From a virus: a stretch of DNA of 64,000 nucleotides. The stretch covers positions 1-64,000 of IMG/VR virus record IMGVR_UViG_3300036939_000039; one strand, given 5' to 3'. Below the pieces are notes generated by a model. It was not told the origin of the DNA, ran no database searches, and was given only the letters and a program-made list of their open reading frames with translations. The position numbers were made by a program, and so were the translations under genes. Of the stretch, positions 9,901-24,494 are shown in pieces; position 1 is the first letter of the stretch, and the number at the start of each line of letters is the position of its first letter.

Positions 9901-12900
9901 ATCTAAGTTGCAAGGATTTCAGTCTAATTTCTTCTCAGGATTTGTTGATTCGCTCATATCAGGACTGGACAGCATCCAGTCGGCACAACAGGCAGAGATA
10001 CAAAAGCGACAACAACTCTATCAAAACCAAATTCAAGCATCTGATTTGTTGCGTCAAGGGTCTGAGCTAACCCGTCAATTGCCAGATGGATTGCCTAGCA
10101 ATTTAGTCCCTAATTCAATATCTACAACGCCTATCCCAAGAATTCCTATCAGGCTTGACATTGACGCCGTAAATGCTGATGCAACGGTCAAGCAACTCAA
10201 GGCAGGATTGGAAAGCGCAGGAGTGACAACCAAAAATCTTAACGGCGCGATCGCTGATGTCAATACATCTTTGCAGCAGACACAGCTGCCTCCGCCCAAT
10301 CCCACGCCGTGGAATCAAGCGATTGACTTCCTAAAAGCAAAATGGAATGAGTTTGTAGAGTTCGTTAGGCAGCGGTTCCCTGACTTGTCTGCGGCTATTT
10401 CCAAGCCTTTTGCGGATGGTCAATTAAGTTTTGGCGCATTTAGTGCATCAATTGCTGGTGGTATTCCCGGTCTAATTGCGTTGTTTGCCGGATTAATTGG
10501 CACAAGTAAGCAATTCGAGGATGCATTAAAGAGCGGTTGGCAAGCATTCTTGAATGTTGTTGAACAAAGCAAAAATTTCCTGCTTAATATTTTCACTAAT
10601 CCTCGCGCTGCGTGGAATGACGCGATCGCTTCTCTTCAATCTAGCTGGAAATCTTTTGTAGCCTATGTTGACCAATCAGTTCCAGCTATTAGAAATATAA
10701 ATACTGAATTTAAGCGTATCAACGAAGTACTAAGAGAAAACATTGCCGCACAGATTGAAATAATAAAAAAGCAGCTTGAATCTATCCCTGGGATTCAATC
10801 TATTCGTGCAGAGTTATCACGAATGAATCAGGATTTAGGTCAAACAATTGCGTCATACTTGCAAATCATTGAAAAGCAACTTCAATCAATACCGGGCATA
10901 CAATCAATTCGCGCAGAATTAGCCCGGATGAATGAAGCCCTTAATCAGGCGATCGCGGCACACATTCAAATCATTGAAAAACAATTTGGCATCAATGATT
11001 TAACTGGGAAAATTAAAGCTAGTACTAAAGAGTTTGCAGCCATTGTAGGAGTTAACTTGCTCAAGGCATTTAATCCTGTCCTTGGGATTGTGACCGAAAT
11101 TGGCTTAAAGCTATCCAAGTATCCCAACTTAGTAGATGCAGCCAAAAAGCAAGTAACTAGCTTAGGAAATGAATTTAACAAGCTTGGCAATTCAGTTACA
11201 AGTCTAGGTGAAACACTAGTGGGTTCATTTGGTAAATCGATTGACACGATTAAGCAAAAAAGTAAGGAAGCGATCGCGTCAATCAAGGGTGACTCTGCTA
11301 ACTTTGAGCAATATGTACAAGAAGGGTTACTGAGTGCTGGTCAGGGGAGTGCAGCAACGCCACAAAAGCCAAAACAAAGATCAGCAACAAGTAGTACCAG
11401 TCTAATATTAGACTCAGGCGATGGAGGTAGCAGTGGCGGCGTTGTCAAAGGTAATGGACGAGTTACGATTGAATATCGAACGGGTTTAATCCCAGGACAA
11501 AACTATGGCGCACCTCGCCGGGGCGGGCGTCGCCACGCTGGACAAGATTTTGATATTAGTGGTAACCAAGAAGCTCAAAGTTTCTTGGGCGGTGTTGTCA
11601 CAAGGGTAGGTTTTGATCCAAGCTACAAGGGTTATGGGCACTACGTTGATATTTACAACAAAGCCTTAAATGTTGTTGAACGGATAGCCGAAGCGTCAAA
11701 GCTATTAGTTAAGCGGGGCGATACTGTTCAACCTGGTCAAGCGGTTGGCAAGGGTGAAACAAATACGGGTGTTATTCATTATGAAATCCATACTGATCAC
11801 CGTCGCGGTGTGGCGGATTTTGGGTTTCCTGGCACAACGAACCCAGTTAAATATCTTGAAAAATTAGGTTTAGTTCGACAGGTAGGAAATCGATTAAAAG
11901 TTACTGGTGGGTTAGCTCCATACGAGCAGCAGCTTAAAGGACAGATGCGACCCTCGGTATCTTCTACTGCTAATAGAAAAACGGAAGATCAAGGGATTAT
12001 CAGTGGAGGTGCTAATGCAATTGGGGCAGCGATCGCAAACTCACTCAGAAGCAATAGCAACGCGCCCACTAATCGAGCCATTCCAAGAGGGTTAACAGCA
12101 AAAGGGCAACGCTATGCTCAGTTGTTGAATGATCCGGAAATTCGAGCATTACTAGATATGATCGGGAGGGCTGAGGGTGCGGACTATAACTCGCTATATG
12201 GAGGTAGTAAGCTGTCGAGTTTAGCTCAACATCCCAATAGAGTAGTACGAAAACCGGGTTGGATTCCGTCAAGTGCAGCTGGTAAGTACCAATTCATGGA
12301 TTACACTTGGTTTGGACGGAGAAAACGGAGACCGGGCCCCGGAATTAGAGATATCACTGGGGTACCAGATTTTAGCCCTACTAGTCAGGACATTGCAGCG
12401 ATTGCCCTATTGGATGAAATAGGGGTTTTAGAAAAAGCAAAACAGGGAGATCTTCGTAGCATTTGGAAGCGACTTGGCGGAACGTGGGCAAGTCTTGAAG
12501 ATAATCCATATGAGCAGGGAACGCCCCAAGGTTTACGAAGTTCGGCTATCCCGTATTTTCAAAAACGACTTAATTATTATCGCCAACAAGGTAGAGGCTC
12601 TACTCCTGTGCGCCGTAGTGCGGTACTAGGGGTTAGCATGGTAAACCCCGAAGTAGTGGCAGAAGAGGCAGCAAAAGCAAGGCAAGCCGCACAAATTGCC
12701 CAACCTCCTAAAGCGCCCACTCCAAAACCAACTCCAGTCCCAGTATCAGTAGTATCTACCAAGCCAGTACCTGTTGTTGATACAGGCTTAAAACAGCGTG
12801 TTGTCAGTGGTCAAAGTCAAGTTATTCGTAACCGTGAAAGCCAAGATCAACTTGCCATCCAGCAAGAGCAACAAGCGCTTCAAGATTTGCAAACAAGGGG

Positions 12901-15193
12901 GGCGCAGGAGCAACGAAATCGAACAGAACAAACGCGCCAATCTCTCAATCAGCTTGTAGAGCAGTCCCTGGGTATTCAGCGAGAATTTAGAAATTTAGGG
13001 AGTGTAATTGGCGACCCTACCCCCTTGCGGGAATTTCAGCAGAATCTGACAGCAACTAGTGATACTTATTCAGACTTAAGACGGCGCTTGTTAGAGTTTC
13101 AGCGTCAGACTACAGCAGGGGTAGAACAGGCGCGCGCTACTGAAAAGGAGCTAACATCCCCCACCTATCAAGCACAGCCCGGTCAAGACGTCGCCAAAGA
13201 TATTGAAACAACCCGTAGAGCGATCGCGGTCGGTTCCAGAACACTTAAAGAAGCGGATACTATCATTGGTCAGATTGATGACCAAGAAAAGCGCCGTCAA
13301 GCATTTGAGAAAGAGCGGTTTGCAAGAGAGGAAAAGCTACGACGGTTGGCGGCTCGTGACATGATTACCCAAGAGGCGATCGCTCTCAAGCAAGAGCAAT
13401 TGAGGCGTGCCCAGCTTGCGCAACAGCGCAACCCCCGCGACTTCTCTCAAGGCGACCCGATCGCGTTACAGGCAGAAATTGAGTTAATGCAGCGCCTACT
13501 CCCTCTTGATCAAAAGCGTCGGCAATTACAAGAGGAATTAAGGTTAGAACGGATTAAGCCTCAAGAGTACAATGACGCGATCGCCCTCCTTAACCAGCAA
13601 GAGAAAGCCTTAACCGCAAACACAGAAGCCGCGCAAGCATTCGGTCGAGAGGAACGACAACTTCAGTTTAGAGAAGCTGATTTTGCATTTCTGCAACGTC
13701 GCAATCAAGCATCAGGACAGCTAACTCAGGCACAACAGCAGGCGGCTGAATTATTCCAGCAGTTCCGCCCATTTGATTTAAGCCAAGGTGACCCTGCGCT
13801 GTTGCGTTACCAGCAAACAGTGTTACAAGTCGAGCAGGAGCGTCAACAGGCAATATTAGAGCAGCAGCGCTTTCAGTTGACGAATCAAAACCGCTCTCAA
13901 GAAGACTTGAACGCAATCCTTGCAACTATCAATCAAGCGGCGGATCAACGATTAGAGAATGCCAGAGTTGAATTACAGCAAACACAGACCCGGTTTACTC
14001 AAGATAAACTTGACTTTGAATTACGACGCAAGCAACAGAATCAGCAAGCTGACCTGGCAACCCTACAGGCTAGGACAGGGTTGTTAAGTTCGGTCGGCAT
14101 TGAAGTTGATTCTCTATCCCGTCAAGCGCAAGAATTCAATGCAAGTATGCAATTCGATTCAGCGATCAGGGAGCTTGAGAAAGCGCGTGCATTGACGAAT
14201 CTTTCAGCTGAGGACTATGAACGGCAACGTCAAAGTCTAGAGCAAATACTATCTTTGCAACGACAACAAGCCGCGATCGCATCCCAGCAAGCACGCTTCA
14301 ACCGCAATGCAGAGATGCTCAATCTCAGAGCAGACGTACTGGCAGGGAATGGCGCGGATTTCTCAGCTACATTCATTAAACGCAATGTGGCGATCGCTCA
14401 GCAAAACATGACGTTCAAAACTCAGATGGAACAATTGAACCAATTGAGGGGGCAAATTCCAAATGATGAATTTGAGCGGATGCGTGATTACTTGATCCAG
14501 ATCAATCAACTCAAACTGGATCAAATTCGCCAACAGTTTGCTGACTTATCCCGCGAAGTAGAGCTGGCTGGCAGAGACGCAACAAAGAACTTCTTTAAGG
14601 GTTTTCTGATTGAAGGTAAAGGTGTTTTTGAATCCCTTAAGGACGCATTCAATCAGATGAAAGACCAGATTATTGGTCGATTGATTGACATTGGAGTTGA
14701 AAGCATATTCAAGGGTAAAAATACGGGTCAAGACACTGGTGGAGGATTACTAGGCAGTATTGTAGGCTCTGTCATTGGCGGTGGCAGCAATCCATTAGGA
14801 TTACTGACAGGTATCCTTGGTTTCTCTGAGGGTGGCGTTGTTCCTGGAACTGATAAAGGTAAAGATAGTGTCCCTGCGATGCTACGCCCCGGAGAGTTCG
14901 TTGTATCTCGCGACGGTGTAACAAACATGGGGACGGCATTCCTTGATTCTTTGAACTCAGGGGGAGCTATGCCGTCTTACCAGCAGCGTGAATACTCTAG
15001 TGGGGAACCCGTAGAAAGTAGTCGCAGTATCAGTATCCAGTATGAAAAGATAGGCGATCGCGAGTACATCACCCGTGAGCAGTTTGAGCAGGGCATTCAA
15101 TACGCCGCGCAAGAAGGGGCGCGAGGTGGTGCCAAAATAACCTCAAACTGGATGAGGAATTCGCCCAACGAAAGAAGGCGACATGGGCTGTAG
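3968..15193 (+). CDS. tail tape measure protein, 3741 aa, with embedded enzymatic domains
   Basis: - Giant ORF after the chaperone-position genes, with a GTG start and GGAG 8 nt upstream.
- Long coiled-coil and Q-rich stretches.
- C-terminal GGVVPGTDKGKDSVPAMLRPGEFVVSRDGV block, typical of tape measure proteins.
- Carries hydrolase-like, M23 and lambda-R-like domains. Confidence 0.9.
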   Translation: MDYIASIGIGTGLDLSGFYAGLEQIKRVKLPVVHIVPTVDHTALYKLNEHIDEKIAHVAQANAYLKRNPIKVYANTSELIRLKETVVSVNNWMVSNPIKVKTVVQKIDETALRSQIDELSSKLEASVKVKATVDKTEAQKLNVALESGVKEAFKDSAVVLKNSIEKANIKSTSDRGIVGGAVGAITAPLKQVASGVFTSIGFPLGEKIGIGITKNLERKLNTSFIKVGEKIEDYSSSKVQRVTQASLGTLGLTTEQIKNDAIAFAKAFDKATDPEPIEKAAKKAETLLVELLENIFVFKDVGKAKEAARREAQNVAKAASELAQNEAIRPYVGAGLKIGAYPFKIRRSVKAQDLAMQAEKLAQNIEVVPASKVGDAPTITIAIAGKNNVQGAGSAVIAPEFQALMGKKTHVVPVANPYTDSGLAGLDDFLDELKKADKGLMGNLNKFLTNRNIDIGNLSKHLTGKTTFAQAIYEKDKSGSLLGLEQMAYTGAVKGYNPDALTAAAYAIAYQKAYPGKKINVVGHSAGGEVAAGVAEITAKAGVTVNAVGLGTPMTGLVYAGNVGNQQANYTSLMGKKDYVYTQMFEANKLDAADIKLLVEKGVEAEARKTLLQGIFNPALTPMTLIPGAGKSHALPMYLSNPRIQKEMQQRLTGALPDEIAKEFKDPETYKFIRDRGLKADIPIKAIQSLTGEEISTSDLKRSLRDVEKLSEDFRQNTAELRGVMKEDFENYLQFLGSIEAAIKDTIAQGEVSSEKIKSALDLGAQYYEPVQALQQQLTPTLNANIDRERAARAQKQAQEARAIAEAEVLRKQNTTNLYRYPEVPRGAISLLQNQSASTRELIDSRRDIDELIKQIKADTTQLTNVTQQDIDNYLDYLETLKQSINSFINGEPLGQLDKLIKTTDKTFAPVNLPVNIQSSQPELTAISPVNQTSLKSTAQKATDEALQRNVKEVIKKSDILINQVVGAIGQPLIQEISRPDASLIDQIKQRTEALAQSSLTASDLSKGVPNISAAYADVVKDLLPGLSQEIEQAIASLPVNERLSSELGNQLANLKSQVIKIQKRTEDSIKQINKPLTQAIDAGASVKNLGLQFSEKIKSARKLSTLDPIESQKLANEVLTGAKEARKAIDDLMKSLGSNASQELKAIAKSARTRITVASSSAESLVQSQEVGSNIGQGLSEGMSQSINQVKVAAEELAKSAIEQAKDTLDIQSPSRVFQRIGEFVVEGFSQGIQKGQQGLDWARELITKPSQGAIDKVMQVREAINELIKANPLLRSLSSGIRGVGVALLTLQLIPVLGNIANQAYQTAKAFDSLERSIRYSAGSESEGAKNIAYIRSEVERLNAPLQDATESFNELAGALQGTKLQGNTREIFTALNEAALVRQLSPEKRRRFVYGVAQAAGKPVLSSEEVNQQIGEALPGAANIFARAYGESPETFRKNLVTGQYSGAESVLKFARQLRVEFASGVDEATNSTQALENRLGNTRIQLERMLGSAVMPLVNTGLKGLNIALEAVIANVDKITLILGALALQQLPAVLGLILKIAQVALPALAGGFNVAAAAIAKFSLQTAALAVALKVVSDTWQSFQGSQNLDSAIEKNIKQFKRLEDAASGVGKGIVKTSNDLDKFLNRNIQQKALDTFNPIASILGNYNKLQSIIRSRSNLKDIQEFNNRVNVTLGNSQVKPDDAARSRQLSALTADPFLPSYQRDIYSKEKEQIDTRVRNQKELVDSLLEAANAEIESIDELWAKNQISRKQADVLKSNIRQSIPALEAAQKELENFTSGQISLVKLIRDQLTKTATAYADANAAIANNTARYQVGLSTAQRNGLTPGQAQYGQQLLQQRSLEAQINNANTALSKLNKYVETPDNVQLLFEKGINPRTVGAEELNRLSGLATGAEEKLLYERLTKMREIEGQLGQLEVQLSQSQADAAQQLYELGKSVDEYLRGITRQTQELQLTIEASESQLAIAAEKNRLISKLQGFQSNFFSGFVDSLISGLDSIQSAQQAEIQKRQQLYQNQIQASDLLRQGSELTRQLPDGLPSNLVPNSISTTPIPRIPIRLDIDAVNADATVKQLKAGLESAGVTTKNLNGAIADVNTSLQQTQLPPPNPTPWNQAIDFLKAKWNEFVEFVRQRFPDLSAAISKPFADGQLSFGAFSASIAGGIPGLIALFAGLIGTSKQFEDALKSGWQAFLNVVEQSKNFLLNIFTNPRAAWNDAIASLQSSWKSFVAYVDQSVPAIRNINTEFKRINEVLRENIAAQIEIIKKQLESIPGIQSIRAELSRMNQDLGQTIASYLQIIEKQLQSIPGIQSIRAELARMNEALNQAIAAHIQIIEKQFGINDLTGKIKASTKEFAAIVGVNLLKAFNPVLGIVTEIGLKLSKYPNLVDAAKKQVTSLGNEFNKLGNSVTSLGETLVGSFGKSIDTIKQKSKEAIASIKGDSANFEQYVQEGLLSAGQGSAATPQKPKQRSATSSTSLILDSGDGGSSGGVVKGNGRVTIEYRTGLIPGQNYGAPRRGGRRHAGQDFDISGNQEAQSFLGGVVTRVGFDPSYKGYGHYVDIYNKALNVVERIAEASKLLVKRGDTVQPGQAVGKGETNTGVIHYEIHTDHRRGVADFGFPGTTNPVKYLEKLGLVRQVGNRLKVTGGLAPYEQQLKGQMRPSVSSTANRKTEDQGIISGGANAIGAAIANSLRSNSNAPTNRAIPRGLTAKGQRYAQLLNDPEIRALLDMIGRAEGADYNSLYGGSKLSSLAQHPNRVVRKPGWIPSSAAGKYQFMDYTWFGRRKRRPGPGIRDITGVPDFSPTSQDIAAIALLDEIGVLEKAKQGDLRSIWKRLGGTWASLEDNPYEQGTPQGLRSSAIPYFQKRLNYYRQQGRGSTPVRRSAVLGVSMVNPEVVAEEAAKARQAAQIAQPPKAPTPKPTPVPVSVVSTKPVPVVDTGLKQRVVSGQSQVIRNRESQDQLAIQQEQQALQDLQTRGAQEQRNRTEQTRQSLNQLVEQSLGIQREFRNLGSVIGDPTPLREFQQNLTATSDTYSDLRRRLLEFQRQTTAGVEQARATEKELTSPTYQAQPGQDVAKDIETTRRAIAVGSRTLKEADTIIGQIDDQEKRRQAFEKERFAREEKLRRLAARDMITQEAIALKQEQLRRAQLAQQRNPRDFSQGDPIALQAEIELMQRLLPLDQKRRQLQEELRLERIKPQEYNDAIALLNQQEKALTANTEAAQAFGREERQLQFREADFAFLQRRNQASGQLTQAQQQAAELFQQFRPFDLSQGDPALLRYQQTVLQVEQERQQAILEQQRFQLTNQNRSQEDLNAILATINQAADQRLENARVELQQTQTRFTQDKLDFELRRKQQNQQADLATLQARTGLLSSVGIEVDSLSRQAQEFNASMQFDSAIRELEKARALTNLSAEDYERQRQSLEQILSLQRQQAAIASQQARFNRNAEMLNLRADVLAGNGADFSATFIKRNVAIAQQNMTFKTQMEQLNQLRGQIPNDEFERMRDYLIQINQLKLDQIRQQFADLSREVELAGRDATKNFFKGFLIEGKGVFESLKDAFNQMKDQIIGRLIDIGVESIFKGKNTGQDTGGGLLGSIVGSVIGGGSNPLGLLTGILGFSEGGVVPGTDKGKDSVPAMLRPGEFVVSRDGVTNMGTAFLDSLNSGGAMPSYQQREYSSGEPVESSRSISIQYEKIGDREYITREQFEQGIQYAAQEGARGGAKITSNWMRNSPNERRRHGL
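5100..5900 (+). other. alpha/beta serine-hydrolase-like region inside the tape measure protein
   Basis: GHSAGG nucleophile-elbow motif (GxSxG) with the Ser codon at 5540-5542 (aa 525). Flanked by VVPVANPYTDSG and GAGKSHALP blocks. Motif-level evidence only. Confidence 0.4.
7486..7499. repeat. palindrome variant GTCTAATATTGGAC (1 mismatch)
   Basis: Inside the tape measure CDS, translated S-N-I-G. Confidence 0.9.
9253..9266. repeat. 14-bp palindrome (exact), intragenic
   Basis: Inside the tape measure CDS, translated S-N-I-R. Confidence 0.97.
10742..10990 (+). repeat. 105-nt (35-aa) tandem repeat, about 2.4 copies, inside the tape measure gene
   Basis: IAAQIEIIKKQLESIPGIQSIRAELSRMNQDLGQT, then IASYLQIIEKQLQSIPGIQSIRAELARMNEALNQA, then IAAHIQIIEKQFG. 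Units start at 10742, 10847 and 10952. Confidence 0.9.
11400..11413. repeat. 14-bp palindrome (exact), intragenic
   Basis: Inside the tape measure CDS, translated L-I-L-D. Lies immediately upstream of a Gly/Ser linker and the M23 domain. Confidence 0.97.
11470..11830 (+). other. peptidase M23 (LytM-type) domain of the tape measure protein
   Basis: HAGQDFD (HxxxD) and HYEIH (HxH) zinc-ligand motifs at the expected spacing. Confidence 0.8.
12100..12590 (+). other. lambda R-like lytic transglycosylase (GH104-type) domain of the tape measure protein
   Basis: Four blocks match lambda R as recalled:
- LLDMIGRAEG vs FLDMLAWSEG
- SSAAGKYQF vs STGAGRYQL
- DFSPTSQDIAAIALL vs DFSPKSQDAVALQQI
- TWASL vs IWASL. 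Confidence 0.8.
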
Positions 15194-15472
15194 TCAGTGT
15201 CTAATATTAGACTTCCGGCTAAACCGCATCCACCATAGCCAATACCTTAGTTTACGGATTGGATTACGGGCGATCGCGGCAATTTCACTATTGATAGAAT
15301 AAATGCCGTAAATTAGCTTCCCTATTGGGCTACACCAAAACTCCTTGATGTCTCGGCAATTCGTATACAACAGCTTGCTTCCATCCGGATGACTTTGTTT
15401 CCATGCTAAATAGGCGTCTTTCTCCGATAGTTGCAAGCTCCACGTAAAAGCGTCTAGATGTCTCCACCGCAT
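15194..15472 (-). CDS. hypothetical protein
   Basis: 92-aa ORF convergent with the tape measure gene, with abutting stops. The C-terminal SNIRH is encoded by the palindrome. Confidence 0.4.
   Translation of the reverse strand: MRWRHLDAFTWSLQLSEKDAYLAWKQSHPDGSKLLYTNCRDIKEFWCSPIGKLIYGIYSINSEIAAIARNPIRKLRYWLWWMRFSRKSNIRH
15199..15212. repeat. 14-bp palindrome (exact)
   Basis: Lies 5 nt after the tape measure stop, at a convergent junction. Confidence 0.97.
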
Positions 15473-15580
15473 AACATAAATAGTGCTGTTTCTATGAAAT
15501 TATATAGCTTTTTGAATACAATTCTTGCTGATAATTAGCGATAAAATTAAAAAGATTACCCTAGTCAATGAGAGCTAAAT

Positions 15581-15781
15581 ATGCCGATCGCTAAATCAGT
15601 GGGATTGCCCGAAGCTATCCCTTCCACGCCCCCCAACAATGCTTATGTATTGAGGGTTCAATATGAACTCAGTGTTGCCAATAGGACATCTACATACACC
15701 CCTGATAATCTAAAGTCGCCTCATGATCAGGCGCTTCTCGCAGGTCATAAGGCAGCATTACAGGCTTTGTTGCCAGCATAG
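15581..15781 (+). CDS. hypothetical small protein
   Basis: 66-aa ORF followed by a clear intrinsic terminator. Confidence 0.4.
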   Translation: MPIAKSVGLPEAIPSTPPNNAYVLRVQYELSVANRTSTYTPDNLKSPHDQALLAGHKAALQALLPA

Positions 15782-15804
15782 TTTGGATATCACTTACCTG
15801 GGTG

Positions 15805-15837
15805 AACGATGCAGAATTTTATTGCATCGTTTTTTTA
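15805..15837 (+). terminator. Rho-independent terminator
   Basis: 9-bp stem aacgatgca/tgcatcgtt followed by a T-run. Confidence 0.7.
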
Positions 15838-15941
15838 ATGAGCGATCGCCCCCCCCAAAAAAACTTTTAGTTTAATTTATGAATCTTCCGGATCTGAGCT
15901 AACACCCTCGTATAACTAATTGTACAGGTGGAGATTGATTT

Positions 15942-16274
15942 ATGCTTTCTTATTTTGTCTTTAGTTACGGAATAGGCGCGATCGCAACTTACTATTTGAT
16001 GCGTCAAGAGGCGATCAGGAGAAACCCAGCGCTTCTAGAAGCCGCATTCCCTGTTACAACTTCCCTGTGGGAAACAAGCCGGGTTGTTGGTCGCAAAGCA
16101 ATGATCGTAAAAATACAAGAGGCACTTAAAGACGCTGACGTCGAGGCTAGTCAAGAGGCTATTGAGCGAAAGCTTTTCCCCTACTTCGTGATCCTTATTG
16201 AGTTCTGCATCCCTATCTTTGCTTGGTGGTTTCTTCTAGGATTCACTCTTTTTAACTTTTTTAAGGTTAAATAA
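15942..16274 (+). CDS. putative membrane protein
   Basis: 110-aa ORF with GGAG upstream. Hydrophobic N- and C-terminal segments. Confidence 0.5.
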   Translation: MLSYFVFSYGIGAIATYYLMRQEAIRRNPALLEAAFPVTTSLWETSRVVGRKAMIVKIQEALKDADVEASQEAIERKLFPYFVILIEFCIPIFAWWFLLGFTLFNFFKVK

Positions 16275-16310
16275 GCCTTAAGGATTTTTTTTGAACTTTT
16301 CTGCATAATC

Positions 16311-16341
16311 AAGCGATGCAACATCATGTTGCATCGCTTTT
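16311..16341 (+). terminator. Rho-independent terminator
   Basis: 12-bp stem aagcgatgcaac/gttgcatcgctt, 5-nt loop and a TTTT run. Confidence 0.75.
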
Positions 16342-16346
16342 GTAGG

Positions 16347-16736
16347 TTAGTCTAATATTAGATTTCTCAGCATGAATAGATGATCGATCGCCCTTCGTAT
16401 CTCTTTGATCCGATAAGGTTTTGTGATAAAATAGTCCGCACCTAATTGCATCGCTAGCTGTTGGTTGACCATTCCTGCTTGCGCCGTTACATAAGCGAAA
16501 GGAAGATAAGCCTTTCGCGATCGCCTCAGTGTACGAACATGCGCTAGTATTTCCCACCCAGATACTTCATAAAGAACGACATCGCAAAGGATCAGATCAA
16601 AATGCTGATTACTGAGGACAGCGATCGCCTCATTTCCGTTACTCACTCCTAATGCGCTGTATCCTTCTAGCTCCAAGATTTCAATTAAGTTTTCTCTGCA
16701 TTCTTGCTGATCTTCAATGACTAGAATTTGTACCAT
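16347..16736 (-). CDS. single-domain response regulator (CheY-like receiver)
   Basis: Acidic pocket VIEDQ, phospho-acceptor context LILCDVVL, and conserved Lys in FITKP. 129 aa with no output domain. Confidence 0.85.
   Translation of the reverse strand: MVQILVIEDQQECRENLIEILELEGYSALGVSNGNEAIAVLSNQHFDLILCDVVLYEVSGWEILAHVRTLRRSRKAYLPFAYVTAQAGMVNQQLAMQLGADYFITKPYRIKEIRRAIDHLFMLRNLILD
16350..16363. repeat. palindrome variant GTCTAATATTAGAT (1 mismatch)
   Basis: Encodes the receiver C-terminus N-L-I-L-D, and the stop codon abuts it. Convergent junction. Confidence 0.9.
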
Positions 16737-16754
16737 TGGTACTGATTACTAACA

Positions 16755-16997
16755 TCAACTACGACGAAACATTAGTATGTTTCCCTGCTCGACATTTTCA
16801 TTTCTCTCTTCAACCAATGATAACAATCTAACTAAAGATTGCTCAATTCTTATTAGATGCTTGTCTTTTTGTTCTGGTGTCATGCGATCGCCATACTGCC
16901 TCAGTAATTCCACCGAGGATAGTGCAGGCGTAAGAGCATTGCGATAGTAATGGTTGTTTTGCTCAATTGCTGTTGACGGTTCGATTTGACGCAGCAT
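16755..16997 (-). CDS. free-standing DHp/HisKA-like protein (80 aa)
   Basis: NNHYYRNALTPALSSVELL matches the H-box (HELRTPLTSI..ELL). A second helix, KHLIRIEQSLVRLLSLVEE, follows. No ATPase domain. Lies 18 nt upstream of the receiver gene. Confidence 0.6.
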   Translation of the reverse strand: MLRQIEPSTAIEQNNHYYRNALTPALSSVELLRQYGDRMTPEQKDKHLIRIEQSLVRLLSLVEERNENVEQGNILMFRRS

Positions 16998-17052
16998 AGT
17001 CTTATTGCCCCTAGTCTATAATTAATATTAATCAATCGTAACTAAACGTACA

Positions 17053-18423
17053 GTGAAAACTCTCCGTCTAAGGGGCTACTTGAAAGAAAAACTATTGATG
17101 GGAGCGATCGCTTGCGCTGTTGTTGCCGCTGTAGCCAGTCCATTGCTTTTAATTACTCAAGGAAGTATTCACAATACATTGCAAACTATTGAAAAATTGC
17201 ACGTTGACACGATACATCTAGAACGCATTGTCACTGCATTTACTCAGTCGGATATTACCGCTAAAGAATATCTAATTAAAAGCGCACTAGGGAATCTAAG
17301 TGATCGTAGTTACTACATTACCACCTTTAACAAGAACCTGAATAGCGTAGATGTTTATACTAAAGAATTAATTAACAATCGCTACGTTAACAGGTTGGAT
17401 GTTTATGAATTGCAACAAATCAAACAAGAAAAAATTAAGGTATTTCAGGCTACTCTGCAAATTAGATTTTTGACTCAAACCAAAAACATTGCTTTACTCC
17501 TATCACGGGACAGGCAGTTAATTGCCAAGGTGGAACAGGAGGCGAACCAAATTCGTGCCTTAATTCGTCAAAAACAATACAGATCTATTCATTATTTAAA
17601 CTCGCTCTTGGCAAGGCGTCTAGCACTATCAGCCACGTTATCTGGCGCGATCGCCTCCACAGTCCTATTGATCGCATGGAGGAATAAGCAGTTACTCATC
17701 AAGCATCATGCGGATGCTTGCGAGATCAAGGTAATGCAAAATGCAAGAGCGGAACGAGCACGAGTAATAGGTGCGATCGCCCACGATTTACGCCTATGCC
17801 TTCAGCCTATATTAACAGCATCAGAGTTAATCCAACACTATGGTAATACTAGACCTGATCGACTAAAAACATGGGTTGCACAAATCCCAAAAGGCACTAA
17901 CAGGATTAAAGATTTAGCTAATGACTTAGTCCTAGTTTGTCAATCAGAAACCAATCAGATCCATCTAGACATCCAAGAAGTGGACTTACCTGAACTAATC
18001 AACACTATCGCATCTGAGTATAGCCAGTCTACCGAAATACATGAACTGATTGTTAGGGCTTTGGGAGAACAACAGATTATTAGAATTGATCCTGATTTTT
18101 GCGATCGCGCTATTCGCAACTTAATTAGTAATGCGATTAAATATTCCCCAAAGGGAGGAATGATTTATATTTTAGTTGATCTTCAAGCCTGGTCTGTTTC
18201 GGTAGGTGACAAAGGTATAGGAATTCCCGAAAATATAGGCAATACTGTTTTTGAAGCGTTTCAACGTGCTGACAATGTTGGAGCGGTTGAGGGAGTTGGA
18301 CTGGGTTTATCGGTTGTCAAGGCTTGCGCGATCGCTCATGGCGGTAGTGTTTCTGTAGCTAGCCCTGGTTCTATACAACAGATGCAATTCAATACAGTTT
18401 TTACTTTAAAGCTAAAACCCTAA
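17053..18423 (+). CDS. membrane sensor histidine kinase
   Basis: - Two predicted TM segments flanking a loop of about 170 aa.
- H-box AIAHDLRLCLQP, with the His codon at 17782-17784.
- N-box NLISNAIKYSP, G1 DKGIGIP and G2 GVGLGLS.
- An ATG at 17098 is an alternative start. Confidence 0.85.
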   Translation: MKTLRLRGYLKEKLLMGAIACAVVAAVASPLLLITQGSIHNTLQTIEKLHVDTIHLERIVTAFTQSDITAKEYLIKSALGNLSDRSYYITTFNKNLNSVDVYTKELINNRYVNRLDVYELQQIKQEKIKVFQATLQIRFLTQTKNIALLLSRDRQLIAKVEQEANQIRALIRQKQYRSIHYLNSLLARRLALSATLSGAIASTVLLIAWRNKQLLIKHHADACEIKVMQNARAERARVIGAIAHDLRLCLQPILTASELIQHYGNTRPDRLKTWVAQIPKGTNRIKDLANDLVLVCQSETNQIHLDIQEVDLPELINTIASEYSQSTEIHELIVRALGEQQIIRIDPDFCDRAIRNLISNAIKYSPKGGMIYILVDLQAWSVSVGDKGIGIPENIGNTVFEAFQRADNVGAVEGVGLGLSVVKACAIAHGGSVSVASPGSIQQMQFNTVFTLKLKP

Positions 18424-18430: not shown

Positions 18431-18444
18431 GTCTAATATTAGAC
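18431..18444. repeat. 14-bp palindrome (exact)
   Basis: Lies 7 nt after the kinase stop. Contains the GTC TAA that ends the convergent gene 18439..18945. Confidence 0.97.
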
Positions 18445-18945
18445 TTGGGCTTTATCTTCGAGCTTTACAAGGCGCTCCACCAACTGAAGGACTAGACTGG
18501 ACTCCGCTCTTAATGCAATTTCCCTCGCAGCTTGGGCGTCATTTCGTGCGGCTTGGGCGTCCGAGGTAGCGTTATAGGTCACCCCTCTGAGCGTCTCTAC
18601 TTCCAGCGCGATCACCTTCCTCAATGCCTCGACACGCTCACGCTCCTCCTCTAATTGTCGTATAGCATCAGCAACCATCTGCTTAAGGGCTTCTGTCTCT
18701 TCTAGGCGTAGCAATTGCTGATCAAAGCGCTCTAAATTTTTAACAACGCGATCGCCTATTTGAAATAGTGCAGGTACACCCCCGATCGCACCCAACACCA
18801 CCAAAATTAAACTCTGACTGTCTGCCGTTATTGGGGCTAACCCTAAAGCAACGGCAATGACAGCAACAATAATTAGCAAGATTAATGCTTTATTGCCTTT
18901 ACCCCTAAAAGAGAGTTTCATTTTCCGAAATTTGGGTTTTATCAT
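18439..18945 (-). CDS. membrane-anchored coiled-coil protein
   Basis: Two hydrophobic helices followed by a heptad-like acidic/Ala-rich region. Overlaps the FHA gene end. Confidence 0.5.
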   Translation of the reverse strand: MIKPKFRKMKLSFRGKGNKALILLIIVAVIAVALGLAPITADSQSLILVVLGAIGGVPALFQIGDRVVKNLERFDQQLLRLEETEALKQMVADAIRQLEEERERVEALRKVIALEVETLRGVTYNATSDAQAARNDAQAAREIALRAESSLVLQLVERLVKLEDKAQV

Positions 18946-19298: not shown

Positions 19299-19312
19299 GT
19301 CTAATATTAGAT
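19299..19312. repeat. palindrome variant GTCTAATATTAGAT (1 mismatch)
   Basis: Lies between the stop of 19312..21081 (1-nt overlap) and the FHA gene start. Confidence 0.9.
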
Positions 19313-21081
19313 CAGATCGAAGCAGGTTCTACTAAGACTATATGTCCTTGCAACCTCATTTTCTGAGTAGAGCCGATACCTGATTCAAGATTGAAAACTC
19401 GCCCTGTTGCAGTAGTGTAATTATTCAATAAGGTTTGCCCTGCTTGAAATGTTACGGTAAAAGGGCTTGCAGTGCCAGCGATTGAGGCAATAACCAAGTT
19501 TCTACCTAGGCTATTGGTTGCCCCATCTTGCAGTAGTAAGCGATCGCCTACATTAAGCCCGGTTGTTGCAGTAACTTGAATTGAATTAGCACCAGCTGAG
19601 GCATTAGCAGCTAATGACAGTATGGTGCCCCTTGCTGTCTCGCGAACGCCATTAACTCGCGTAAAGTCAAGTGTAAATGGCGTCGCATCCGTGCGTGTAT
19701 CAACGGCTTTTGCCATATTAACGATCACAGAAGTAGTAAATTCTGGATCGAAGTCACCGTTGCCAATTCCGTGAGTAATCGTTACCTTTGTGGCATTAGC
19801 TAAACTCGCATAATAGCTGAATGGTGCTACCCGATTACCGCTAAACGAATTCAAGAATGCAGCATACTCAGGATAAAAAATTAAATCCCCCCACGCTGTA
19901 ATTAATACATTTTCTAGATTGATACAGCCAGAAAGATTTGGGAATCCCCCGATCGCCTTAAAGTTTGCTTGATAGAGCGATTGTGGATCATCCGCGAATC
20001 CTAGGCGAAGATTGGTTAAGTTTGTTAAGCCCGACAAATTAAAGTCGGCAGGCAACAGGAGGGGTGCCATGTCATATCCTGCGTCACCACCTGCACTTAC
20101 CTCTTCTTGTAATGCCTCAAAGCTGAGGCTTTGAATTGATACAGGTAAACGCAATTGCGATGTCAATAATATCTGGCGGCGTTCATCAATTTGTCCGTTT
20201 CCGTCTCTCGTATAGATTGCCCCTGTAACGAAAGTCAATTCTCTCAAGTTTGTGATTTGAGAGAAATCCGGAGGGGTGTAACGCTGTGGGGTTCGTGTAA
20301 GAATTGGCAAAATTAACTCACGAATTGCCGTTACTCCATCCGGCACTTCTAACCTGATCAGTCGGGTGTAATCTCGTAAATCAAGAGTTTTGCTGGGGTT
20401 GGTATCCTTGGATGTTGTCCCGTCCGGAAAATGCCAAGTAAAATCCTCTCCACCTGCCACGACTACAGCTAGCCTTGGCTGAATATTGCTGAAATTTAGA
20501 TATCCCTGAATAGGAATATAGACATTTTTGGCTAAGTCTAACGCAGGGGGGGCTTGTGTTACACCAGAAATTAACACATTAGTGATTCTTGCACCGTTGC
20601 GACCTGATAGCAAAATGAAATCTGCGACAGTTGGCAGTGGAGTTGCACTGACAGCTGAGTGCCTTAGCGTTGCCGTTGAACCACTAATTGTATAGAAATT
20701 AATGGTGTCTCCTGCACGCTCAATTCGCATTCTGATGCTTGGGGCATAATCAACTGTCGTATCAACAAATGCATTATTTGCAGACAGTTTTACAAAGATG
20801 CGATTAGTGTCCTGATGCGCTCTTACGCAAAATCCATACGCGATTAAATGCAATGCAGACATCGCACTTTTAACGGCATGAGGATAGACGGCATAAGTAA
20901 ACCCAGCCGCTGCACTTAATGCATCTGCTGTGTTTTGATTAAAGCCAAACTCAATATAGCCATTACCGACCAACTGTTGTAAGGTCGAATATCCTCTAGT
21001 GTTTGCAGCAAAACTGGAAGATACATCTTGTAAGAAAATCGTGTTAGCTGGGTTGCCTGTTCTAGTTGCGGTTAAGCTCAT
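19312..21081 (-). CDS. putative tail fibre / receptor-binding protein with lectin-like N-terminus and LRR-like centre
   Basis: 589 aa. The N-terminal 170 aa look like a concanavalin/LamG-type jelly roll. The central LxxLxLxxN-type repeats include ITNLRELTF, LTNLTNLRLG and CINLENVLI. Confidence 0.45.
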   Translation of the reverse strand: MSLTATRTGNPANTIFLQDVSSSFAANTRGYSTLQQLVGNGYIEFGFNQNTADALSAAAGFTYAVYPHAVKSAMSALHLIAYGFCVRAHQDTNRIFVKLSANNAFVDTTVDYAPSIRMRIERAGDTINFYTISGSTATLRHSAVSATPLPTVADFILLSGRNGARITNVLISGVTQAPPALDLAKNVYIPIQGYLNFSNIQPRLAVVVAGGEDFTWHFPDGTTSKDTNPSKTLDLRDYTRLIRLEVPDGVTAIRELILPILTRTPQRYTPPDFSQITNLRELTFVTGAIYTRDGNGQIDERRQILLTSQLRLPVSIQSLSFEALQEEVSAGGDAGYDMAPLLLPADFNLSGLTNLTNLRLGFADDPQSLYQANFKAIGGFPNLSGCINLENVLITAWGDLIFYPEYAAFLNSFSGNRVAPFSYYASLANATKVTITHGIGNGDFDPEFTTSVIVNMAKAVDTRTDATPFTLDFTRVNGVRETARGTILSLAANASAGANSIQVTATTGLNVGDRLLLQDGATNSLGRNLVIASIAGTASPFTVTFQAGQTLLNNYTTATGRVFNLESGIGSTQKMRLQGHIVLVEPASI

Positions 21082-22697
21082 TAGAAATCCTCAAAAAATA
21101 AGCTGACAATTGTATTAATCGTAGGGATAATGACCGGGGGTGCTCCGTTAGCATACTCAATGATCATTTCTTCTACGTTTGTTGCCAAGCCAGCTTGGGT
21201 TGCTGAACTGCTGTAACCAGGAACTAAGGGCTGGCAGACAAGGTATAGGCGTGATTGTGCCAATACTGCTAGAAAATCAGATGACCCTTCAATCTGAAAG
21301 GGGTTGTTAAATTGTGCCCCTAAAAACGATCGCACCCGACTAAATACGCTTCGCAAATCGTAGAGAGCATGACCTACAACGCTAAAACTTCCAATAACAA
21401 CTCCCCCACTAATTTCTGCATTGCAACTATACAAACCCAGGAAATAGTCCGAGTAGTAATTAGAGGTAATTAGCGACTTTTGTTGTGGGTCGGTGTCCGG
21501 ATTAAGAACCAGGGAAAGCTCGACAGGATATTGACTGTAAGCCGATAGTTGAACTGGGCAAATAATAGATGACATTGGACGATCGCCTATCAATGCTTTT
21601 GCTTCAATCAAAGCGATCGCTGTTTTGTCGACATCACGCCGCAACTCCCCCGATATCGAAAAAGACCCGTTAGCGCGAGGGGAATACCCATCCTGGCTAT
21701 CACCACTTAAGGTTACAGATACGCCATATTTGCACAACAATTGGTCAGTGGACGGAGCAACTAGCCCAATATTACTAAATGTAATGGGTAAACCTTCTTC
21801 CATCACAGCGCGCAAAAAGCTGGAGTCAGCCGATCCGATGGTTGCAAACTTAATCCATCGAAAGATACCCATATTAGCGGCATCTTCGCAGTAAACGTAG
21901 AAGTCCGCTATCCCTCCATCACTTGCAGAGATTTGAAAGCCCCACATAGTGACATTTGTTAAGCTGACAAACGCCTTGCTTGCCCCCGTTCCGTCTAGTG
22001 GATCAGCCCATTGCGATCGCGGCAAAACCTGATTCTTGACAACCCCTGCCTCTACGTAACGCCGCACAATCCTAAGCTTATCGCCCTGACCGTCTCCGAT
22101 CGACTCCATATAGTAACCTGTGTTACTACTAAATGCCCCCCACTGCTTGATAAAGCTATCGCCTTGACCAATTGCCTTAACGCCCATCGTGAACATTACA
22201 GGCGATCCAGGTGGCACACGAAAGCGCCTCTTACTAGCCAGAAGTGATTGACGTGTACCGTAAAAATTTGCTGGGTTCGCAGGTAGTAGTAACTCAATCC
22301 CAGATTGAGCAAAGTAAACCGTAGCGATGTCTGGGGTTGTTTCGTAGGAAACAATTAGATTCTCAATGTTTGTTGCGATACCAGGATGTATCGCAGGCAC
22401 CCTTTCAGTTAATGTTCCTGCTAGCGAATTTGAGACATCCCAGTCCTGTAAATCTAACCCATAGCGGTTGACGTCTGCGTAAAGTAGCTTCCGATTTTTG
22501 GTGTTGTTACTACCAAATTGATCAAAAAGAAGATCTTTGTTCTGAACAATTACTTCCTTAGTGGCAACTTTTCCGGAAATGTCTCCGGTTAGCGTAACCG
22601 GGTAACTCTCTTTTAAGGAATGAACACCTCTTTCATCAGGGCGATCGCCCAAGTTGGCAGGAAAATAACCTTTGCGAATTTCTACTATTTCAGTCAT
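21081..22697 (-). CDS. tail-associated structural protein (paralogue A)
   Basis: 538 aa, collinear blocks shared with 22767..24494. Stop and start are coupled (TAATG) with the next gene. Confidence 0.5.
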   Translation of the reverse strand: MTEIVEIRKGYFPANLGDRPDERGVHSLKESYPVTLTGDISGKVATKEVIVQNKDLLFDQFGSNNTKNRKLLYADVNRYGLDLQDWDVSNSLAGTLTERVPAIHPGIATNIENLIVSYETTPDIATVYFAQSGIELLLPANPANFYGTRQSLLASKRRFRVPPGSPVMFTMGVKAIGQGDSFIKQWGAFSSNTGYYMESIGDGQGDKLRIVRRYVEAGVVKNQVLPRSQWADPLDGTGASKAFVSLTNVTMWGFQISASDGGIADFYVYCEDAANMGIFRWIKFATIGSADSSFLRAVMEEGLPITFSNIGLVAPSTDQLLCKYGVSVTLSGDSQDGYSPRANGSFSISGELRRDVDKTAIALIEAKALIGDRPMSSIICPVQLSAYSQYPVELSLVLNPDTDPQQKSLITSNYYSDYFLGLYSCNAEISGGVVIGSFSVVGHALYDLRSVFSRVRSFLGAQFNNPFQIEGSSDFLAVLAQSRLYLVCQPLVPGYSSSATQAGLATNVEEMIIEYANGAPPVIIPTINTIVSLFFEDF

Positions 22698-22705
22698 TCT
22701 TGTTA

Positions 22706-22719
22706 GTCTAATATTAGAC
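22706..22719. repeat. 14-bp palindrome (exact)
   Basis: Lies 8 nt upstream of the ATG at 22697 (minus strand). Confidence 0.97.
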
Positions 22720-22766
22720 CGATACTTTCTGTCCTATGACGTGCACTTCAATGTTTCGTCCGCTAC

Positions 22767-24494
22767 TTACTGTTCACCCCATGTCAATGAGCAAGAAACG
22801 TTAGCAGATCCGGCAACTAATGTACGCGCAATAACTACCAAGACATCACCCGGATCTGTTGGAGCAACTTGTTCGGCACGTCCTAGTTGCTCCCTCTTTG
22901 GGCTAAATAAAGGCTGCAAATCGATAAACGCTGATCCGTTACCTGCACAGTAGTAAGCACCGAATAGTTTCCCAGCATTACTATCAGCAGGTCTCCCCCC
23001 TGCTCCTGCATAAGTCCCTGTAAACGCAGAAGTGGCGGCAACTACTTTTAAGTGTTCAGCATCACCCGTTAATGCGTACCAAGTTGCAACGTTAGGTGAA
23101 CCAGCACCCTGTAAACTTGTTGGGTTTTTCAGTAAGTACACCTCAACCGGAATACCCCCGCTAACCGCAATTGACAAAGACAAGGGGAATACTCGTGACT
23201 TTTGTGGGCGTCGCTGTGTGCTTACTGGAAGGTTGCGATTAAAAACAAATGATTTGACCGCGATCGCCAAAATAGGCTGATAAGCAGCGTTGGCAACGGC
23301 AACAATAGGCGATCCGTAGCTGCCGATGACCATTGGATCAGGATCACCTCCTGGTATCCAGCAGCTGACGCCGTAACGTCGCATGAATGCAGCTGAAGAC
23401 ACTGATTCAGCTAGGCGATCGCGCCGATGGGCTACTTGGAAGGTGATCGGTAGATTGGGCGATTCCATTGTGGGGACAGGCAAAGTATCCCCATGCCGTA
23501 TTTCATGAGCCTGTACCCACCGTGTTGACCCCAGTGATGGAGAGTTTTGATCGGGGCAGTAAACATGCCCGGAACCACCAGACGCACCATACCAGCTAAA
23601 CCGAGTCAGAAACATAATGATGTTGCTGACTTCTGAATTATTCAATCCTGAAACAGGTTGCAGTAAAGACAAGAAACGAGCCGAAGTTGCACGGGTTGAA
23701 ACGCCCGACGGATTGCCGTCATTAACCCGCCCAGTCAGCTTATCTCGATTAAATTGACTGTAATGAATAATTTCTTCAAAAGTGTCAACGTCAATCAACT
23801 TAGTGTCGGCTCCCGTTGCTCCCACTAGATAGGTTGGGCGAAACATTGATGAATCCCCCAGTGCCGCGCCATTCACGTGTTGCCCATCGCTTGGATCGAC
23901 TGAACCAACAACAGTCCCTGTCAACCCCTCCAGTGCCGTCCCTTCAATGGCGCTTGAACGCCTGAACATATAAAGATCAGATTCCCAGTGCCCAAGACCT
24001 GCATTCCAGCGAGTTAATAACCTCCACCCGTATCCATCACGCCGCGTAAAGTTCCCCCATTGGTACATGACAGCACTTGCCGCCGCGCCCTTATTGACTT
24101 GAATTGCATAGGAGGTGTCTATCTCCTTACCTGGCTGATATTGATAAGCGTACTTTGTCTGTTTAACAACAGCACTGTCATTTTGGCTTAACCGAAATTC
24201 CGCTGCTGAAATCTCTGGCACATAAGTTACCGTACCTTTGCCAGTATCGGTATCGATAAACCAAATATTTGGATCAATGCCTGTGCTCAGAACGTTCTGT
24301 AAATAGTAATATGGTTCCTGATTGACACTAAACCCAAACTGATCGGTTTGCAGTTCAGAGATGGGTTTATTGGTATCATAGACCGGGATCTGAGTTTGAT
24401 CGGGGGGCAAAACAACAGGAATACTTTCCTGCGCGATCGCTTGTCCTTTCTTGACAGGCTCGTTATAGGCAATTACAACAACTGGATCAACCAT
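22767..24494 (-). CDS. tail-associated structural protein (paralogue B)
   Basis: 575 aa. Shared blocks with paralogue A are DQFG, YQPGKE/RVPPGS, QWGNF/QWGAF, LPITF and RYGVS/KYGVS. Confidence 0.5.
   Translation of the reverse strand: MVDPVVVIAYNEPVKKGQAIAQESIPVVLPPDQTQIPVYDTNKPISELQTDQFGFSVNQEPYYYLQNVLSTGIDPNIWFIDTDTGKGTVTYVPEISAAEFRLSQNDSAVVKQTKYAYQYQPGKEIDTSYAIQVNKGAAASAVMYQWGNFTRRDGYGWRLLTRWNAGLGHWESDLYMFRRSSAIEGTALEGLTGTVVGSVDPSDGQHVNGAALGDSSMFRPTYLVGATGADTKLIDVDTFEEIIHYSQFNRDKLTGRVNDGNPSGVSTRATSARFLSLLQPVSGLNNSEVSNIIMFLTRFSWYGASGGSGHVYCPDQNSPSLGSTRWVQAHEIRHGDTLPVPTMESPNLPITFQVAHRRDRLAESVSSAAFMRRYGVSCWIPGGDPDPMVIGSYGSPIVAVANAAYQPILAIAVKSFVFNRNLPVSTQRRPQKSRVFPLSLSIAVSGGIPVEVYLLKNPTSLQGAGSPNVATWYALTGDAEHLKVVAATSAFTGTYAGAGGRPADSNAGKLFGAYYCAGNGSAFIDLQPLFSPKREQLGRAEQVAPTDPGDVLVVIARTLVAGSANVSCSLTWGEQ

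Follow-up and report, generated by a model that had tools for sequence, protein, structure and literature searches.

A putative three-protein phospho-signalling module with a free-standing DHp protein in a cyanobacterial siphovirus lineage

Introduction

To our knowledge, phage sensing systems such as arbitrium AimR and VP882 VqmA use cytoplasmic receptors. Here, we describe three genes at positions 16347-18423 of the first 64,000 nucleotides of IMG/VR virus record IMGVR_UViG_3300036939_000039 (the window), which encode a predicted membrane sensor histidine kinase, a CheY-like receiver and a protein of 80 amino acids (aa) that appears to be a DHp domain and little else (the DHp-only protein). 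Among phage-encoded systems, agr3 of Clostridioides difficile phage phiCDHM1 comprises AgrB, AgrD and an AgrC-type kinase, without a response regulator, and is transcribed in infection (PMC3901668). The likeness lies in a phage-encoded sensor histidine kinase for which signal sensing by the phage has been proposed (PMC3901668). The phiCDHM1 AgrC has a close host homologue (61% identity) and the G+C content of agr3 is deviant (PMC3901668), whereas the locus described here includes a receiver and a DHp-only protein, lacks genes for signal synthesis and close homologues in hosts, and matches the rest of its genome in composition. PIT4 of Pseudomonas phage LSL4 is a small phage protein acting on two-component signalling (PMC10714779). 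We found no indication that PIT4 belongs to the two-component families, whereas the small cyanophage protein is itself a predicted DHp domain with a phospho-accepting histidine. In the literature on phage-encoded two-component systems, and under the accessions of the assemblies, no description of such a module was found, the nearest being phiCDHM1 agr and phage proteins that perturb host systems.

The locus consists of three open reading frames (ORFs), with the kinase gene divergent from the DHp-only and receiver genes:

16347..16736, minus strand: single-domain CheY-like receiver, 129 aa; Asp52 codon at 16581-16583
16755..16997, minus strand: DHp-only protein, 80 aa, heading a two-gene operon in which the receiver follows; His16 codon at 16950-16952
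16998..17052: divergent intergenic region of 55 bp between the DHp-only/receiver operon and the kinase gene
17053..18423, plus strand: membrane sensor histidine kinase (predicted topology), 456 aa, GTG start
17092-17160: first predicted transmembrane helix of the kinase
17161-17616: predicted extracytoplasmic region
17617-17679: second predicted transmembrane helix
17758-17952: DHp domain of the kinase; His244 codon at 17782-17784
17953-18420: CA domain of the kinase

Among cellular systems, the Bacillus Spo0 relay (KinA to Spo0F to Spo0B to Spo0A) and Caulobacter ChpT are alike in that a sensor kinase and a single-domain receiver are joined by a histidine protein of the helical-hairpin type on a polypeptide of its own, dimeric in these systems and putatively so in the phage. 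The phage histidine protein differs from Spo0B and ChpT in its size of 80 aa, in being a true HisKA homologue by sequence and in lacking a C-terminal CA-like alpha/beta domain, and because of this last difference it is not a member of the Spo0B/ChpT family. Nor does the phage module, unlike the Spo0 relay, encode a terminal regulator. The comparison with Thermotoga HK853-RR468, and with other HisKA kinases that work with single-domain receivers, extends over the DHp and CA domains of the phage kinase core, and the phage receiver likewise has no output domain. HK853 is bifunctional with a canonical H-E-x-x-T-P box, whereas the phage kinase reads H-D-x-x-L with proline at His+8, and an asparagine-bearing DHp is found on a separate polypeptide. 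The best cellular matches to the trio are cyanobacterial REC-HisKA-HATPase_c kinases (Geminocystis, Cyanobacterium, Rivularia, Scytonema; P0008-P0025), with identities of 32-37% for the kinase core, up to 50% over the DHp for the DHp-only protein and about 30% for the receiver. These kinases differ in being one soluble polypeptide with an N-terminal receiver, no transmembrane or sensor domain and a canonical H-box, and the likeness of the phage kinase to them ends at the catalytic core (134 bits, against 320+ bits within the phage family).

Sensor kinase and receiver

A class I histidine kinase is expected to carry a HATPase_c domain with N, G1, F and G2 boxes, a DHp histidine with an acidic residue, and two transmembrane helices around an extracytoplasmic sensor. 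All of these are present in the kinase, the last by hydropathy and thus as a predicted topology. Pfam HATPase_c matches at 6e-20 (72 bits against a cut-off of 26.4), and the HisKA match is sub-threshold at 4.5e-4 (20.6 bits against 26.9). Residues 225-437 of the core align with the solved structure of HK853 (2e-18) and with VicK, WalK and KdpD, placing His244-Asp245 on the HK853 H-box. Invariant throughout the kinase family alignment are His244, Asp245, N356/N360, D386xG388xG390, F400/F403 and G414xG416xG418. The two hydrophobic helices (at about aa 14-36 and 189-209) enclose a loop of about 150 aa. No HAMP domain was detected in the kinase, and the second helix runs straight into a helical linker and the DHp helix. 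For the sensor region (aa 1-230) no Pfam match was obtained even at E<=10. An AlphaFold2 (AF2) model from a 7-sequence alignment predicts four long helices for the sensor domain at low confidence, with a predicted local distance difference test (pLDDT) value of 47, which is too poor for a fold search to be worthwhile.

A single-domain receiver of the CheY/Spo0F type is expected to consist of a receiver domain without an output domain, as is the case here. Response_reg covers aa 4-117 of the protein (2.8e-21, 76 bits against a cut-off of 30.2), and the closest solved structures are AdeR-REC and Spo0F (1.3e-13). Residues E8, D9, D52, T84 and K106 are invariant, and position 103 is aromatic (Phe here, Tyr in distant relatives). 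A word-indexed homologue search returned only 7 candidates for the receiver and was uninformative. When the trio was compared with the whole window by tblastn, no other two-component gene, output domain or second receiver was found.

No protein of the trio scores above the curated cut-off of an NCBIfam equivalog (PhoR/PhoB, PnpS, CreC/CreB, RpaB, CpdR and others). The kinase matches PnpS best, with 108 bits where 400 are required, and the receiver matches PhoB best, with 68 bits where 270 are required, while the DHp-only protein has no match. The defence models of PADLOC match neither the kinase nor the DHp-only protein, and the receiver gives only a weak receiver-domain match to PD-T4-6 (1e-4).

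An earlier note on this DNA, made from the sequence alone, had read positions 16347-18423 as a two-component set comprising a kinase with H, N, G1 and G2 boxes, an 80-aa DHp-only protein and a 129-aa CheY-like receiver without an output domain. Pfam matches, alignments and invariant catalytic residues bear this out for the kinase and the receiver, modelling and sequence comparison do so for the DHp-only protein, and all four boxes of the kinase are present and invariant in its family. Its picture of two transmembrane segments around a loop of about 170 aa agrees with hydropathy in the number of segments, and the loop is shorter, at about 150 aa. The profile search and structure prediction that it proposed for this loop yielded no family and a low-confidence helical model.

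DHp-only protein

A Spo0B/ChpT-type dimeric histidine phosphotransferase is expected to form a helical hairpin that carries a solvent-exposed histidine on its first helix and can build a four-helix bundle. The AF2 model of the 80-aa protein is a confident hairpin (pLDDT 84.8), with alpha1 at residues 7-38, alpha2 at 41-70 and His16 on alpha1. Its H-box reads N15-H16-x-x-R19-N20-A-L-T-P24, and a C-terminal tail G72-x-x-L-x-F77-R is conserved. His16 falls in register with His244 of the phage kinase when the two are aligned. In a Foldseek search, the DHp domains of HK853 and EnvZ are among the best matches to the model, with query TM-scores (TMq) of 0.65-0.72 and E-values that are not significant because the hairpin has only two helices.

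Homology to HisKA was assessed by profile and pairwise comparison. Pfam HisKA itself matches weakly (0.0087). A nine-member profile of the family, run exhaustively against 1.84 billion representatives, gave 235 matches at E <= 0.001, namely five small relatives followed by about 230 proteins at E 1e-7 to 1e-3. In the latter, about 220 residues separate the matched stretch from the C-terminus, and Pfam HisKA was found there in 10 out of 10 checked. By BLASTP against the cellular kinases that the phage kinase had recovered, the protein is 40-50% identical over 46-50 residues to the DHp of cyanobacterial kinases (E 1e-8 to 1e-9). A sequence search of the PDB with the DHp-only profile returned chance matches only. 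Taken together, the hairpin model, the profile matches to HisKA, the BLASTP identity and the in-register H-box, and not Pfam alone, establish the 80-aa protein, at the level of sequence comparison and modelling, as a free-standing HisKA-type DHp domain.

The family has 11 members, 38-55% identical to the window protein and all 80-105 aa long, the window protein ending 10 residues past alpha2. N15, H16, R19 and N20 are invariant among them, and A21, T23, P24 and G72 are almost invariant. Two alternative origins were rejected. The gene is not a recent duplicate of the DHp of the phage kinase, since it is closer to cellular DHp domains, and it is not a decaying kinase fragment, given the same-sized homologues and a ratio of nonsynonymous to synonymous divergence (dN/dS) of 0.03. 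Separately, three metagenomic proteins of 80-90 aa (P0152, P0171 and P0205) contain only a canonical HisKA domain (SH[DE]xR[TN]PL ... ELLxxYG; Pfam 5e-7 to 4e-13). They may be gene fragments, or free-standing DHp proteins may occur more widely than in this phage family.

H-box patterns

In CrdS, two paralogues and HK853, kinase activity but not phosphatase activity was found to depend on the acidic residue one position after the phospho-accepting histidine (His+1), and phosphatase activity but not kinase activity on the Thr or Asn at His+4 (Willett & Kirby 2012, PMC3510030). H-boxes were read from the 120 best kinase homologues, among them about 100 cellular proteins with an H-box picked up by the scan. 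The cellular homologues follow H[DE]x[RK][TNSA]P, nearly all with Thr or Asn at His+4. All phage kinases (7/7) instead follow HD[LV][RK]L[CY]LQP, with Leu at His+4, Cys or Tyr at His+5 and Pro at His+8, and the bifunctional motif of Thr/Asn at His+4 followed by Pro at His+5 is thus absent from the phage kinase. The DHp-only family follows HxxRN[AV][LI]xP, in which Asn at His+4 is invariant (11/11) and His+1 is variable, with no conserved acidic residue.

Read against the published result, this pattern implies that the phage kinase keeps the kinase determinant without the phosphatase one and that the DHp-only protein has the reverse. The phage sensor therefore appears, as far as residue patterns can tell, to be kinase-only. 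A proline at His+8 without one at His+5 is found in both phage DHp helices and in none of the listed cellular homologues. The occurrence of this shift in the two phage proteins, and not in cellular relatives, is suggestive of co-adaptation to a common partner, for which the receiver, co-transcribed with the DHp-only protein, would be the obvious candidate. The locus looks like a natural experiment in HisKA mechanism, with the acidic His+1 and the Thr/Asn His+4 apparently parted onto two polypeptides.

Phage genome and host group

The 64-kb window is part of a cyanophage genome of about 67.5 kb and not of a host chromosome. It encodes a tape measure, a tail J-like protein, virion structural proteins and a large terminase, together with ERF, Bro-N, M15 peptidase, DUF932, and Dam-like and C5 methylases. 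An identical kinase is found on a 67,622-bp NCBI contig whose first base corresponds to window position 24078, and versions 96% identical to it come from IMG/VR and from two further assemblies, in the latter on contigs of 67,430 and 67,444 bp, all with different breakpoints. Near-equal sizes with differing breakpoints across assemblies point to a genome that is complete and either circular or permuted, and not to a prophage within a chromosome. Among the larger ORFs scanned in the window (>=165 aa), none matched an integrase, and a prophage in a host chromosome was rejected on this result together with the permuted contigs of equal length. The possibility of ordinary host chromosome, raised in the earlier note, thus gives way to phage gene content and permuted contigs.

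The host group is indicated by virion proteins and by a sequence signature. The virion proteins are shared with Cylindrospermopsis and Synechococcus siphoviruses. The best GenBank matches of the most conserved one are in Cylindrospermopsis phages Cr-LKS4 and RM-2018a (41%) and Synechococcus phage S-CBS4 (27%). The cyanobacterial HIP1 octamer GCGATCGC occurs at 151 sites in the window against 0.8 expected, or one per ~420 bp, and is equally dense across all related viral loci. The ~2.1 kb cassette formed by the three genes contains 8 sites, the density of the rest of the genome. As a separate observation, the C5-cytosine methylase (34349-35323) and the Dam-like methylase (58157-60229) might act on HIP1-related sites.

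Conservation and selection

If the cassette had been captured recently from a host, close full-length relatives would be expected in cellular genomes. In a pattern scan of 185,579 species genomes, no full-length relative of the kinase was found, only generic cores, mostly at 23-29% identity. In 5.8 billion protein clusters, full-length relatives of the kinase are limited to a single cluster with 96% identity and six clusters with 38-40%. Match scores then drop from >280 to 134 bits, with the catalytic core alone aligning, and none is full-length outside viral-type contigs. On the question of capture from the host, raised in the earlier note, these searches gave no close cellular relative. Megablast of the region against GenBank phages gave no match. 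Comparison of the kinase with phages by tblastn gave core matches only, mostly in contaminated or host-containing records. Two metagenome scans yielded no new family members, and another scan of IMG/VR gave no contigs beyond the three already found.

The relatives carrying a kinase at 38-40% identity (contigs L002-L005, L010, L011 and L039) contain the same three genes in the same divergent layout. There, the trio adjoins homologues of the window's virion block of 589-, 538-, 575-, 370- and 186-aa proteins, and it was found in every recovered related contig whose sequence spans the locus. In a comparison of the window with L011, identity is 39-51% for cassette proteins and 40-78% for virion proteins. 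Against a sister genome, dN/dS is 0.09 for the kinase, 0.16 for the receiver and 0.03 for the DHp-only protein, which indicates purifying selection. Synonymous divergence (dS) of the trio, at 0.23-0.34, is comparable to that of adjacent structural genes (0.28-0.50). The layout shared by divergent relatives, the low dN/dS and the dS resembling that of structural genes argue for an old, vertically maintained module. On these sequence comparisons, it looks to have been selected in the lineage of this phage, despite its location in a variable region, and not to be a recent capture from a host.

The immediate flanks of the trio differ among relatives, which carry GIY-YIG, TnpB, ThyX, dCTP deaminase and glycosyltransferase genes there. 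TnpB/IS605 genes (OrfB_IS605 with Cas12f1-like_TNB) were seen within a few kb of the cassette in L002 (3510-5123), L004 (2939-4147) and L039 (3906-5513), and in these TnpB-bearing relatives ThyX and dCTP deaminase genes lie directly 3' of the kinase gene.

Proposed mechanism and rival explanations

We propose that the trio is a functional three-protein phospho-signalling module of a cyanobacterial siphovirus lineage, made up of a kinase-only sensor, its receiver and a DHp module acting in trans, which would operate in the manner of a two-component system or a short phosphorelay, and we assign this reading a tentative probability of roughly 0.45. The kinase would insert into the host membrane in infection, where a novel domain of about 150 aa, predicted to be all-helical, would detect a cue outside the cytoplasm. 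The kinase would then autophosphorylate at His244 and pass the phosphoryl group to Asp52 of the phage receiver, the direction of flow being one that we infer. The 80-aa protein would serve as a stand-alone DHp four-helix-bundle subunit that provides the missing DHp activity in trans on the phage receiver, so dividing kinase and phosphatase labour between two polypeptides. It would set the lifetime of the phosphorylated receiver by Asn20-dependent dephosphorylation, by back-transfer to His16, or by both. Phosphorylated receiver, having no output domain, would act by binding a host or phage protein. Given the conservation of the trio and the lack of close counterparts in cells, the phage is likely to run an environmental-sensing circuit of its own in its host. 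Timing of lysis or lysogeny and superinfection exclusion are roles that the earlier note put forward as possible.

New, as far as the literature searched shows, is the combination of a membrane sensor kinase, its own receiver and a DHp-only third part, selected across divergent cyanophages and without a cellular counterpart. If the reading is correct, it would be an accessible example of a virus that bases a decision on information from outside the cell, in a host group of ecological importance, and a free-standing DHp of 80 aa would be a very small tool for two-component engineering.

Several points weigh against this interpretation. The kinase model is poor (pLDDT 47), so the sensor fold is not established, and the kinase gene starts with GTG with no clear ribosome-binding site evident upstream in the sequence. 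From leucine at His+4 a loss of phosphatase activity is to be expected, which falls short of proof. Spo0B also has Asn at His+4. His16 is invariant, as needed for a phosphotransferase and not necessarily for a pure phosphatase, which makes a relay equally compatible with the conservation pattern. Finally, the DHp-only protein is nearer to cellular cyanobacterial DHp domains (E 1e-8 to 1e-9) than to the DHp of the phage kinase (E 1e-3), and it might for this reason act on host partners.

The invariance of His16 in 11/11 family members is the first of several observations that agree with a Spo0-type four-step relay, in which the phosphoryl group would pass from His244 to Asp52 to His16, the last in a minimal analogue of Spo0B or ChpT, and on to a host response regulator, giving the phage an input into a host regulon. 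A single-domain receiver with a four-helix-bundle histidine protein is the Spo0F/Spo0B design, and Spo0F is indeed matched by the receiver at 1.3e-13. An external acceptor would explain how the signal leaves a window that has no output domain or second receiver, and the 40-50% identity of the DHp-only protein to host-type kinase DHp domains could give it affinity for host receivers. However, the C-terminal CA-like domain of Spo0B and ChpT is absent here, no candidate host acceptor was identified, and the tight operon link is with the phage receiver alone. In addition, such a relay does not require the loss of Thr/Asn in the kinase together with its retention in the DHp-only protein. We therefore consider this alternative doubtful. 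The same holds for its extension to a private, full sensory pathway, in which a virus-specific membrane receptor kinase would read an outside cue (perhaps stress from nutrients or light, the density of cells or a signal of phage origin) and the DHp-only protein, as a phosphotransferase, would relay the receiver's signal onto a host regulator; this too seems to us rather unlikely. If a relay onto a host regulator is nevertheless true, it would be the first virus-encoded multi-step His-Asp-His phosphorelay, with the smallest known HisKA-type phosphotransfer protein.

The relationship of the trio to host proteins bears on a different alternative, that the DHp-only protein, the receiver or both mainly target host two-component systems, with the phage kinase a separate input or secondary. 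The DHp-only protein may heterodimerize with or mimic host REC-HisKA-HATPase kinases and so drain or block regulators, and the receiver may be a phosphate sink. The nearest cellular relatives of all three proteins do belong to one cyanobacterial REC-HisKA-HATPase family (against P0019, the receiver is 31% and the DHp-only protein 50% identical), and small phage proteins that target host two-component systems are known (PIT4, PMC10714779). However, the fixed divergent layout and the short intergenic region conserved in all contexts argue that the three proteins work jointly, and the proline at His+8, shared by the two phage DHp helices and otherwise unseen, points to mutual adaptation of the module's parts. 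Such a decoy role appears improbable.

Finally, a recently captured host passenger, or an assembly or host-chromosome artefact, without phage-specific function was considered. In its favour, the locus lies in a variable region between tape measure and distal tail, the place where TnpB, GIY-YIG, ThyX and dCTP deaminase genes are found in relatives. PHROGs holds function-unknown kinase and receiver families (phrog_857 and phrog_731) as a database precedent in phage-derived sequence, and many GenBank 'phage' kinase matches are host contamination. This alternative is nevertheless very improbable, since no full-length kinase relative was found in the species genomes or outside viral-type contigs, the module is kept in phages only 39-51% identical in these proteins, dN/dS is 0.03-0.16 with dS like that of structural genes, HIP1 density and G+C match the genome, and independent assemblies gave permuted contigs of like size.

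Intergenic region, palindromes and flanking genes

The region between the divergent genes is expected to hold their promoters. A -10-like TATAAT box is present at 17017-17022 (TAAAAT in distant relatives), and TCTA[T/A]AAT is kept in an alignment of the region from relatives. A consensus scan for promoters and terminators gave no enrichment over shuffled sequence. A 12-bp perfect palindrome, ATTAATATTAAT, lies at 17021-17032 and overlaps the TATAAT box. Its TAATATTA core is shared with a palindrome found throughout the genome, and ATTAATATTAAT may be an operator tying the cassette to whatever binds the genome-wide motif. The gap from the DHp-only gene to the receiver gene is 18 nt in the window and 4 nt in relatives, and in L012 the genes overlap by 16 nt.

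The genome-wide palindrome, TCTAATATTAGA (14-bp consensus GTCTAATATTAGAC), occurs as 27 exact copies in the window against 0.26 expected, or 35 when one mismatch is allowed. Sites include 734, 3915, 15200, 16351, 18432, 19300, 22707, 24505, 26609, 29901, 50438, 60261 and 63605. Copies mostly lie at ORF boundaries, where they often provide stop codons on either strand. They are sometimes placed a few nucleotides upstream of a start codon (50438, with an ATG at 50456), and those at 55178 and 60261 are inside longer hairpins. Sister genomes at 96% identity have 7-8 copies per 17-21 kb, and the motif is absent from the relatives at ~40% identity. Possible roles of the motif are those of an operator, a terminator or a processing signal. 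The copies next to the cassette, and the genes on either side, are as follows:

3968-15193: tape-measure-like ORF, 3741 aa, with a TMP_3 domain and a weak M23 peptidase match
15942-16274, plus strand: membrane-protein ORF, 110 aa, with a C-terminal hydrophobic segment
16350..16363: palindrome copy, here GTCTAATATTAGAT (exact copy 16351-16362), overlapping the last codons and the stop codon of the receiver gene
18431..18444: palindrome copy GTCTAATATTAGAC (exact copy 18432-18443), between the kinase stop (18423) and the stop of the 168-aa ORF; flagged as a terminator-like hairpin
18439-18945, minus strand: membrane-protein ORF, 168 aa, convergent with the kinase gene, with a strong transmembrane segment and a coiled-coil-like C-terminal half

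The earlier note had described the cassette as a moron bracketed by palindromes between the tape measure and fibre genes. Both palindrome copies and the position are as described, the cassette lying between the tape-measure gene and a minus-strand virion/tail block (19312-26208). The bracketing is unremarkable, since the motif is found genome-wide, mostly at ORF boundaries, and is not specific to the cassette. A moron is expected to show deviant composition and boundary elements of its own, a close host homologue and patchy presence among related phages. Here, cassette G+C is 0.41-0.43 within a window range of 0.41-0.49, HIP1 density is native and the palindromes are not its own, and the trio has no close host homologue and is kept in every spanning relative. 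The reading as a discrete, palindrome-bounded moron does not hold, given the genome-wide motif, the native composition and the retention of the trio across relatives.

Neither of the flanking membrane proteins (168 and 110 aa) has a PHROG, Pfam or PADLOC match. The tape-measure ORF, at 3741 aa, is exceptionally long, and a lysozyme-like stretch was noticed by eye near its peptidase region. Between the tape measure and the cassette, region 15194-16330 differs from the corresponding region of a sister genome (L007, 8287-9255), with the 110-aa membrane ORF in the window and an 87-aa ORF in the sister. The region beside the conserved cassette is thus a local hot spot of gene exchange between sister genomes that are 94% identical.

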